269 nucleotides of DNA from Escherichia coli (GTDB lineage: Bacteria > Pseudomonadota > Gammaproteobacteria > Enterobacterales > Enterobacteriaceae): NCBI RefSeq assembly GCF_003334315.1, contig NZ_QOWR01000139.1; one strand, given 5' to 3'. The translations under genes and the position numbers were made by a program. The notes below the pieces were generated by a model, which saw nothing but the letters and a program-made list of their open reading frames with translations, did no database searches and was not told the origin of the DNA. Every line of letters starts with the position of its first letter. Within the stretch, counting starts at the first letter, position 1. Positions 116 through 269 of this stretch are shown one piece after another.

Positions 116-269
116 GTGCTTGAGACTGTTTGTCTCAGGTATTCACCGAAAGGCAGACAGAGAAAAGCCCCACCTGACTATAAATCAAAGTTTGTACTGA
201 CCCCAAAAAGTTGGACAGTTAAACACGAGGCATATAGGTCTGATTCCGATATTCAATTGGAGTCAGACC
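116..269 (+). CDS. Speculative ORF fragment (hypothetical protein), GTG start, runs off the right edge
   Basis: This is the only extended open frame in the flank: + frame 2 is open from 110 to 269 after the TAG at 107-109. The first possible start is GTG at 116-118, with no convincing Shine-Dalgarno upstream. The translation (VLETVCLRYSPKGRQRKAPPDYKSKFVLTPKSWTVKHEAYRSDSDIQLESD…) matches nothing I recognise. An open frame of about 51 codons is weak evidence on its own. Confidence 0.12.
   Translation, partial: MLETVCLRYSPKGRQRKAPPDYKSKFVLTPKSWTVKHEAYRSDSDIQLESD
121..137. repeat. Perfect inverted repeat / hairpin (6-bp stem TGAGAC/GTCTCA, 5-nt loop TGTTT); function unassigned
   Basis: Seen directly: 121-126 TGAGAC pairs with 132-137 GTCTCA. 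As RNA the stem could extend with G-U wobbles and C-G/U-A pairs out to about 116-142. No U-tract follows on either strand, so it is not called a terminator. Confidence 0.5.
237..269. repeat. 33-bp near-palindrome (13-bp arms, 11/13 complementary, 7-bp spacer TATTCAA), truncated by the window edge; function unassigned
   Basis: Seen directly: 237-249 is GGTCTGATTCCGA and the reverse complement of 257-269 is GGTCTGACTCCAA. The outer 7 bp are perfect (GGTCTGA/TCAGACC), and the two mismatches would both be G-U wobbles in RNA. The right arm ends exactly at the window boundary, so the true extent is unknown. Confidence 0.5.

Follow-up and report, generated by a model that had tools for sequence, protein, structure and literature searches.

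Termination signals within insertion sequences and the IS150 end

Transcription terminators residing within insertion sequence (IS) elements are a known kind of signal, as exemplified by the terminator of IS1 (Hubner et al., 1987) and by polar termination in IS2, both cited in PMC12095673. IS150 and its sequence have also long been known, and in Escherichia coli MG1655 the sokA gene is disrupted by this element (PMC11551753). Here we analyzed a 269-nt stretch of E. coli DNA, the whole of which is referred to as the window. Its positions 193-269 are identical to the last 77 nt of IS150 from E. coli K-12. The two agree in the TG...CA repeat, in reading frame, in stop codon, and in the chromosomal insertion site beside hokA/sokA, with no sequence difference. 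This IS150 end contains a hairpin at 237-269 that very probably represents the stem of an intrinsic terminator stopping transcription that enters the element via its right end. Like the internal terminators of IS1 and IS2, it would be a termination signal within an IS limiting transcription through the element. Unlike those examples, it overlaps the final transposase codons while lying on the opposite strand, and it displays covariation in elements ranging from Enterobacteria to Firmicutes. The hairpin combines the classic anatomy of an intrinsic terminator with a mapped RPA-free RNA 3' end 7 nt past the stem. Because it lies opposite the last transposase codons, one stretch of DNA must serve both a protein and an antisense RNA structure. 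No earlier account of the hairpin, its covariation, or its terminator activity was found in the literature searched, and older IS150 papers may contain one.

A hairpin conserved across the IS150 group by compensatory substitutions

The following features are located at the right edge of the window:

237-269, + strand: conserved hairpin, arms 237-250 and 256-269, loop 251-255 (fold, terminator scan, covariation, Term-seq)

253-269, + strand: segment flagged in the initial annotation of the window, comprising the last three loop bases and the 3' arm of the hairpin; minus-strand codons G-L-T-P-I-E

219-269, - strand: C-terminus of the OrfB/InsK transposase, GLTPIEYRNQTYMPRV, last 16 codons plus stop (translation; the annotated coding sequence ends at window-equivalent 219)

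The arms of the hairpin are complementary at 12 of 14 positions and enclose a 5-nt loop, in agreement with the label of a right palindrome arm that the initial annotation had given to positions 253-269. RNA of the + strand forms all 14 pairs, two of them being G-U. A palindrome of this quality was reached by 1 of 500 dinucleotide shuffles of the window. The folding energy of the hairpin was -21.0 kcal/mol (z -6.6) for + strand RNA, which is antisense to the transposase gene, and -14.6 kcal/mol (z -4.9) for the sense strand.

Relatives from the IS150 group were gathered from plasmids and viral contigs, and the codon-aligned block homologous to GLTPIEYRNQT was extracted from each. This yielded 46 distinct blocks, 44 of them long enough for the full 69-nt alignment, at protein identities of 49-100%. 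Nearly all relatives were palindromic at the homologous place, with differing arms (GGTCTGA/TCAGACC, GGATTGAGT/ACTCAATCC, GGCATGAGT/ACTCATGCC, GGCTTGC/GCAAGCC, and GGAAAGAGT/ACTCTTTC), and the hairpin was always found 2-8 codons ahead of the transposase stop. In the gapless alignment A2 (n = 44), 88.1% of the cells were pairing compared to 71.9% in column shuffles (0 of 500 shuffles reached the observed value), and 94 cells had changed on both sides compared to 33 in shuffles; these shuffle statistics overstate independence, the sequences being phylogenetically related, which is a first point against our reading. The pairing fell to 27-50% when the partners were slid by 1-3 columns in A2. Double changes were observed at nine of the 14 pairs.

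The palindrome might be functionless, a chance by-product of the conserved peptide G-L-S/T-P-V/I-E/Q-Y-R, and the block is indeed located within the most conserved C-terminal motif of the family. However, synonymous recodings of the same peptides with each element's own codon usage seldom fold: the share of trials giving an equally stable fold was at most 1% in 29 of the 44 elements and at most 5% in 35 of them. The double changes speak against a by-product as well, as do non-synonymous changes that are coupled across the stem, with Leu (CTG/TTG) facing Gln (CAG/CAA), Met (ATG) facing His (CAT), and Lys (AAG) facing Leu (CTT). The coupled amino acids are residues 2 and 10 of the block (A2 columns 13-45 are homologous to 237-269; loci L007-L086). 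Because these residues co-vary via codon complementarity, the transposase protein sequence is shaped by nucleic-acid structure. We regard a functionless palindrome as very improbable. Based on these results, we concluded that compensatory substitutions have conserved the hairpin across diverged members of the IS150 group.

Strand bias of the hairpin

The non-Watson-Crick cells of the alignment are unevenly distributed between the strands. Such cells were G-U on the antisense strand 88 times compared to 28 times on the sense strand; read in the sense of the transposase gene, these 88 cells are C-A or A-C. In the stem, the Arg codon pairs through its third base with the first Pro base. This third base was A or G in 42 of the 44 elements and in none of them T, compared to a purine fraction of 64% at the Arg third base elsewhere in the same genes (p ~9e-7). 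This base was A in 31 of the 44 elements, giving a mismatch on the sense strand and a G-U pair on the antisense strand. The median z against the synonymous null was -3.6 for the antisense strand versus -2.5 for the sense strand. Both fold energies and z were more extreme on the antisense strand, a tendency followed by 31 of the 44 elements.

These data bear on a possible role of the hairpin in the sense transposase mRNA, either as a 3' stabilizer against exonucleases or as a ribosome-pausing element ahead of the stop codon that tethers the nascent transposase close to the end of its own element (cis preference). The sense strand does fold, as seen from its energy and its synonymous-null median, and the consistent placement of the hairpin 2-8 codons ahead of the stop would suit such a role. 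In contrast, the wobble positions favor the antisense strand by 88 to 28, and the Arg third base is mostly A, which mismatches on the sense strand, and never T. Together with the mapped RNA 3' ends described below, these patterns make a function in the sense mRNA unlikely.

The palindrome could also work as DNA, either as a single-strand hairpin in the copy-out replication of the IS3 family or as a dyad-symmetric site bound by OrfA, the transposase, or a host protein. In every relative it occupies a fixed subterminal place close to the right end, which is consistent with this proposal. Since single-stranded DNA hairpins also tolerate G-T mismatches, the strand bias by itself does not demand RNA. 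However, the arm sequence varies freely while the pairing stays, unlike a sequence-specific protein site, and a DNA-level model, in contrast to termination, leaves the mapped RNA 3' end and the U-tract unexplained. A role as DNA also seems improbable.

U-tract and mapped RNA 3' end downstream of the stem

The stem has 14-15 pairs, six of them G-C, and has G-C pairs at its base, where it ends in GACC. It is followed by a U-tract (TTTTAATTT) at window-equivalent positions 270-278, just past the edge of the window, in K-12 and in every IS150 copy. On the + strand, the terminator scanner reported 15 pairs, a 5-nt loop, and the tail TTTAATTTCA. Among the relatives the U-tract is variable. A T-rich tract is kept in L005 and L009, two relatives without the hairpin (see below), and is absent from a third one, L083. 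When the combination of hairpin and T-tract, strictly defined, was sought over the whole antisense strand of orfB, it was found at exactly one position in 22 elements, namely the hairpin site, and nowhere in the other 22.

In E. coli MG1655, the Term-seq list published by Adams et al. (2021; PMC7815308, Supplementary file 1) has a minus-strand 3' end at 3,721,992, antisense to insJK/insK. Its average read counts were 191,424 and 365,502 in two rows, exceeding those of the neighboring cspA terminator in the same sheets; the string 3,721,992 occurs three times in this file, which has three condition sheets. The 61-nt context of this 3' end equals window positions 226-269 plus 17 bases, TTTTAATTTCAGGCTAA. 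The sgrS row was used as calibration, by which position 51 of each context string is the 3' end, and this places the mapped end at GACC-UUUUAAU, 7 nt past the stem (window-equivalent 276). In MG1655, an abundant RNA 3' end is thus located 7 nt downstream of the stem, antisense to the transposase. The main text of the same study does not mention insK or IS150. Neither of its two remaining supplementary tables, including the one on Rho-termination regions, contains insK, and this absence provides an indirect hint of Rho-independent ending.

A weak sense-strand 3' end was reported at NC_000913.3 3,722,036 (+ strand) with ~899 reads (PMC7815308, Supplementary file 3). It corresponds to window-equivalent ~232 and lies 5 nt past the hairpin in the direction of the transposase, which would favor a function in the sense mRNA, but its abundance is 200-400 times below that of the antisense one. 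Overall, a terminator accounts better for the strand bias and for the mapped 3' end than do the roles considered for the hairpin in sense mRNA and in single-stranded DNA.

Several observations weigh against the terminator interpretation. First, the terminator scan returned no more sites than were found in shuffles (2 versus 1.9). Second, a folding free energy (dG) of -12 or lower together with at least 5 T within the first 8 nt after the stem was found in only 24 of the 44 relatives. Third, the U-tract derives from conserved Lys codons of a K-L-K motif. Lys AAA was counted in 51 of 71 cases (72%) beside the hairpin versus 792 of 1250 (63%) in the rest of the gene, and because it is not markedly commoner beside the hairpin, there is no sign of independent selection on the tract. 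Fourth, eight of the 44 relatives (L005, L009, L019, L020, L052, L062, L068, and L083) are without the hairpin, their antisense fold being weaker than -8 kcal/mol. Seven of these eight keep long open orfB frames, L020 being truncated, and because hairpin-less relatives keep an open orfB, the hairpin is dispensable in some lineages. Finally, the Term-seq 3' end could stem from exonuclease trimming back to a stable hairpin.

Proposed mechanism of termination

In the mechanism that we propose, the hairpin and the U-rich tract (UUUUAAU...) on the antisense strand would act together as a Rho-independent terminator lying within the coding sequence. RNA polymerase that arrives via the right end of IS150 would transcribe the stem and the U-tract and release ~84 nt into the element. 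A promoter scan revealed no inward-facing promoter in the right end of IS150 from which a short antisense RNA might be made. At the hokA/sokA locus, read-in would probably start from a hokA-type promoter ~80 nt outside IS150, because the Rfam hok/sok model starts at 114 and is preceded by the TAGAAT motif (102-107). Termination would protect both the transposase gene and the distal end of IS150 from antisense or convergent transcription, and the nucleic-acid constraint would be strong enough to couple amino acids across the hairpin.

The general form of this proposal is that the IS150 group, from Enterobacteria to Firmicutes, carries an antisense intrinsic terminator in the last ~11 conserved transposase codons, which would block read-in and be kept by compensatory substitutions forcing coupled amino-acid replacements. 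We consider the chances of this generalization to be about even. Termination as the selected function across the whole IS150 group is, in our judgment, likewise evenly balanced.

Resemblance of positions 253-269 to IS1 and Tn3 ends

The initial annotation had correctly given the + strand sequence of 253-269 (TCAATTGGAGTCAGACC) and had suggested that this segment might be the right end of IS1 or, more weakly, a Tn3-family end. It could then be a degenerate or solo IS end, a remnant or surrogate terminus recognizable by a transposase. The IS1 terminus given there agrees with the real one, ...TCAATAAGTTGGAGTCATTACC, the last 22 nt of a complete 768-bp IS1 (L002 2308-3075). The segment has in common with the IS1 right repeat (GGTAATGACTCCAACTTATTGA...) the TCAAT motif, the terminal ACC, and an exact 9-mer, TTGGAGTCA, which is one base longer than had been stated; gaps are needed to align them, as had been noted. 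An end-anchored alignment matched 16 of the 17 bases with 5 gap columns. The exact 9-mer is expected ~0.03 times per window per target. The gapped alignment has a frequency of ~1e-5 per position (Markov null) or ~0.004 per window per target under this lenient null, and was reached by none of 16,784 real background 17-mers. The match is nominally uncommon for one pre-chosen target, but the scoring scheme, the target, and the boundaries were all picked post hoc. A genuine IS1 is, moreover, located 178 nt away within the window. Chance by itself was set aside as an account of the IS1 likeness, and because the lenient alignment proved rarer than we had anticipated, our verdict is based on context and non-conservation.

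Both of these lines of evidence argue against an IS1 end. The segment is located 61-77 nt inside IS150, with IS150 on both sides and no element boundary, and it is 100% identical to the IS150 interior wherever IS150 occurs, whether IS1 is nearby or not. The sequence past 269 is more of the IS150 orfB (TTTTAATTTCAGGCTAATTC...), with no InsA/InsB gene. The 269-nt window shows no inverted partner end, which for IS1 would be expected ~768 bp away along with a target duplication of 8-9 bp. The true IS1 end at 75 and the putative end at 269 face the same way and therefore cannot be partners. The 5 gap columns fall within a repeat of 22 nt, and a contiguous match to the ~23-bp IS1 repeat (starting GGT(A/G)ATG) was rejected, only the 9-mer being contiguous. 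The ungapped local score versus the IS1 end was equalled at 7 other places in 8.5 kb. In addition, the true right repeat of IS150 (201-217, CCCCAAAAAGTTGGACA) outscored 253-269 locally against the IS1 end (AATAAGTTGGAGTCA) by 10 to 9, and such short resemblances therefore arise easily. The IS1-like score of the homologous 17-mer was 10 in IS150, 8 in ISKpn8, and at most 6 in 42 other relatives. Because the score drops in relatives, the likeness comes from the particular codons of IS150 rather than from a conserved signal, and these codons together with the hairpin constraint account fully for the match.

The Tn3 repeat as given in the initial annotation is real, being found at 100% identity in at least 5,000 plasmids, and the claimed 8-mer, GGTCTGAC, does exist on the minus strand. 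It covers 8 of the 38 bases of the terminal inverted repeat (GGGGTCTGACGCTCAGTGGAACGAAAACTCACGTTAAG) and is all that the two have in common, the flanks being AAAA...TCC here versus GG...GCT in Tn3. Matches of this type are expected 0.25 times per window, and 7 were observed in 8.4 kb of background; the 8-mer is a chance match. A Tn3-family repeat of ~38 bp (starting GGGG, beside tnpA) was also rejected, since AAAA precedes the 8-mer and the open reading frame encodes an IS3-family transposase. Past 269 there is no InsA-like or TnpA-like gene, the IS3-family orfB being found instead.

Thus, positions 253-269 are the interior of IS150, within the last codons of its IS3-family transposase. The likenesses to the right end of IS1 and the Tn3 repeat are coincidental, an outcome that the initial annotation had itself allowed for. 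A degenerate or solo IS1 or Tn3 end at this place is almost certainly an incorrect interpretation.

Layout of the window and its two mobile-element edges

The window consists of three parts, an IS1 end (1-75), a hokA/sokA spacer (76-192), and an IS150 end (193-269), with the following features:

1-75, - strand: first 75 nt of IS1 (the reverse complement equals nt 1-75 of the complete 768-bp IS1 at L002 2308-3075)

~53-75, - strand: IS1 left terminal inverted repeat GGTGATGCTGCCAACTTACTGAT..., outer end at 75; the IS1 body runs past the left edge

20-18, - strand: GTG start codon of insA (the annotated IS1A transposase coding sequence of L002 begins at the window-20 equivalent)

76-192, + strand: single-copy chromosomal spacer of K-12 type, glyS-IS150 interval (100% identical to L001 3002-3118)

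114-192, + strand: 5' portion of hokA/sokA, a type I toxin-antitoxin locus (match to the Rfam sok model RF01794 at 70.1 bits; gathering score 59)

193-269, - strand: last 77 nt of IS150 (1443 bp; IS3 family, IS150 group), exact reverse-complement match to IS150 at L001 3119-4561

193-216, - strand: IS150 right terminal inverted repeat TGTACTGACCCCAAAAAGTTGGAC, matching the left end TGTACTGCACCCATTTTGTTGGAC at 18 of 24 positions

The identity of 77 of 77 nt, the terminal repeats, and the transposase family together assign positions 193-269 to IS150 of the IS3 family. The right repeat begins at 193 (TGTACTGACCCC...), and the ends of the element are TGTACTG...CAGTACA, with TG...CA as in the IS3 family. 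At L001, the element is annotated as 'IS3-like element IS150 family transposase' with the transposase on the minus strand, and it runs past the right edge of the window. The transposase stop codon, TAA, is at 221-219 on the minus strand. The complete OrfB scores 350 bits against the NCBIfam model NF033516 for IS3 family transposases (cut-off 160), the profile ending at the R of GLTPIEYR, and the IS150 record carries the annotation 'programmed frameshift', in keeping with the orfA/orfB organization and -1 frameshift of this family. Inside the window, true termini are found at 75 (left end of IS1) and at 193 (right end of IS150). The suggestion in the initial annotation that a second element starts at the right edge was therefore correct in that IS150 occupies this edge and incorrect in that the end of the element is at 193 rather than 269.

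The spacer is located downstream of glyS, and positions 76-269 are 100% identical to the chromosomal site in E. coli K-12 and many other strains. The Rfam sok RF01794 alignment starts at 114 and is strong only up to ~192. The match nominally reaches 253, but its part past 192 was rejected as being forced into IS150 with gaps and low posterior probabilities. The hokA/sokA locus is split by IS150 at 192/193, the same insertion site as in E. coli K-12, with the hokA open reading frame on the far side of IS150 (L001 4594-4746). The likeness to hok/sok concerns the spacer and not positions 253-269.

The junction between IS1 and the spacer at 75/76 is absent from all 5,426 complete E. coli genomes. 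Only CP131_Sichuan and Stbl4 among these genomes cover at least 80% of the window, both without the IS1/spacer junction. In CP131_Sichuan (L002), the closest genome, IS1 is inserted 90 bp nearer to glyS. In Stbl4 (L087 1202-1477), IS150 is cut off at window-equivalent 246, within the left arm of the hairpin, and the IS150 remnant is fused to an internal IS1 fragment (ACCCCGTCAGTAGCTG..., extending as far as the left end of IS1), after which comes a fragment of IS30. The Stbl4 arrangement is a different rearrangement of the neighborhood of the window. In the window itself, IS1 is located ~38 nt upstream of the 5' end of the hok-type RNA and 26 nt upstream of TAGAAT (102-107), and it may therefore alter the promoter feeding transcription into the IS150 hairpin.

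As the initial annotation had proposed, both edges of the window are located in repeat-like sequence, namely multicopy IS1 (1-75) and IS150 (193-269), which fits a short contig bounded by repeats. The IS150 part is exactly 77 nt long, and the IS1 part is 75 nt long plus 2 flanking bases. These lengths would fit a contig from a de Bruijn graph with k = 77 that stops at the first k-mer common to other repeat copies. The repeat finder also reported a 25-nt direct repeat (32-56/163-187, 72% identity) and a 13-nt inverted repeat (1-13/126-138, 85%) between the IS1 part and the spacer; these two-copy repeats of low identity look like chance.

Implications for the biology of IS150

The absence of an IS1 or Tn3 end at 253-269 removes a false lead and leaves the window as an ordinary repeat-bounded fragment. 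The palindrome provides a clear case of overlapping constraints, in which a coding stretch also folds as an RNA hairpin of the opposite strand. Our analysis also accounts for an abundant RNA 3' end of MG1655 that was listed merely as antisense to insK, and left undiscussed, in the original study (PMC7815308). The Term-seq 3' end suggests that the hairpin is a terminator; if so, it illustrates the way in which one group of IS elements insulates its transposase gene from host transcription. Insertions of IS150 are frequent mutations in evolution experiments with E. coli, and a terminator would also explain why their polarity depends on orientation.

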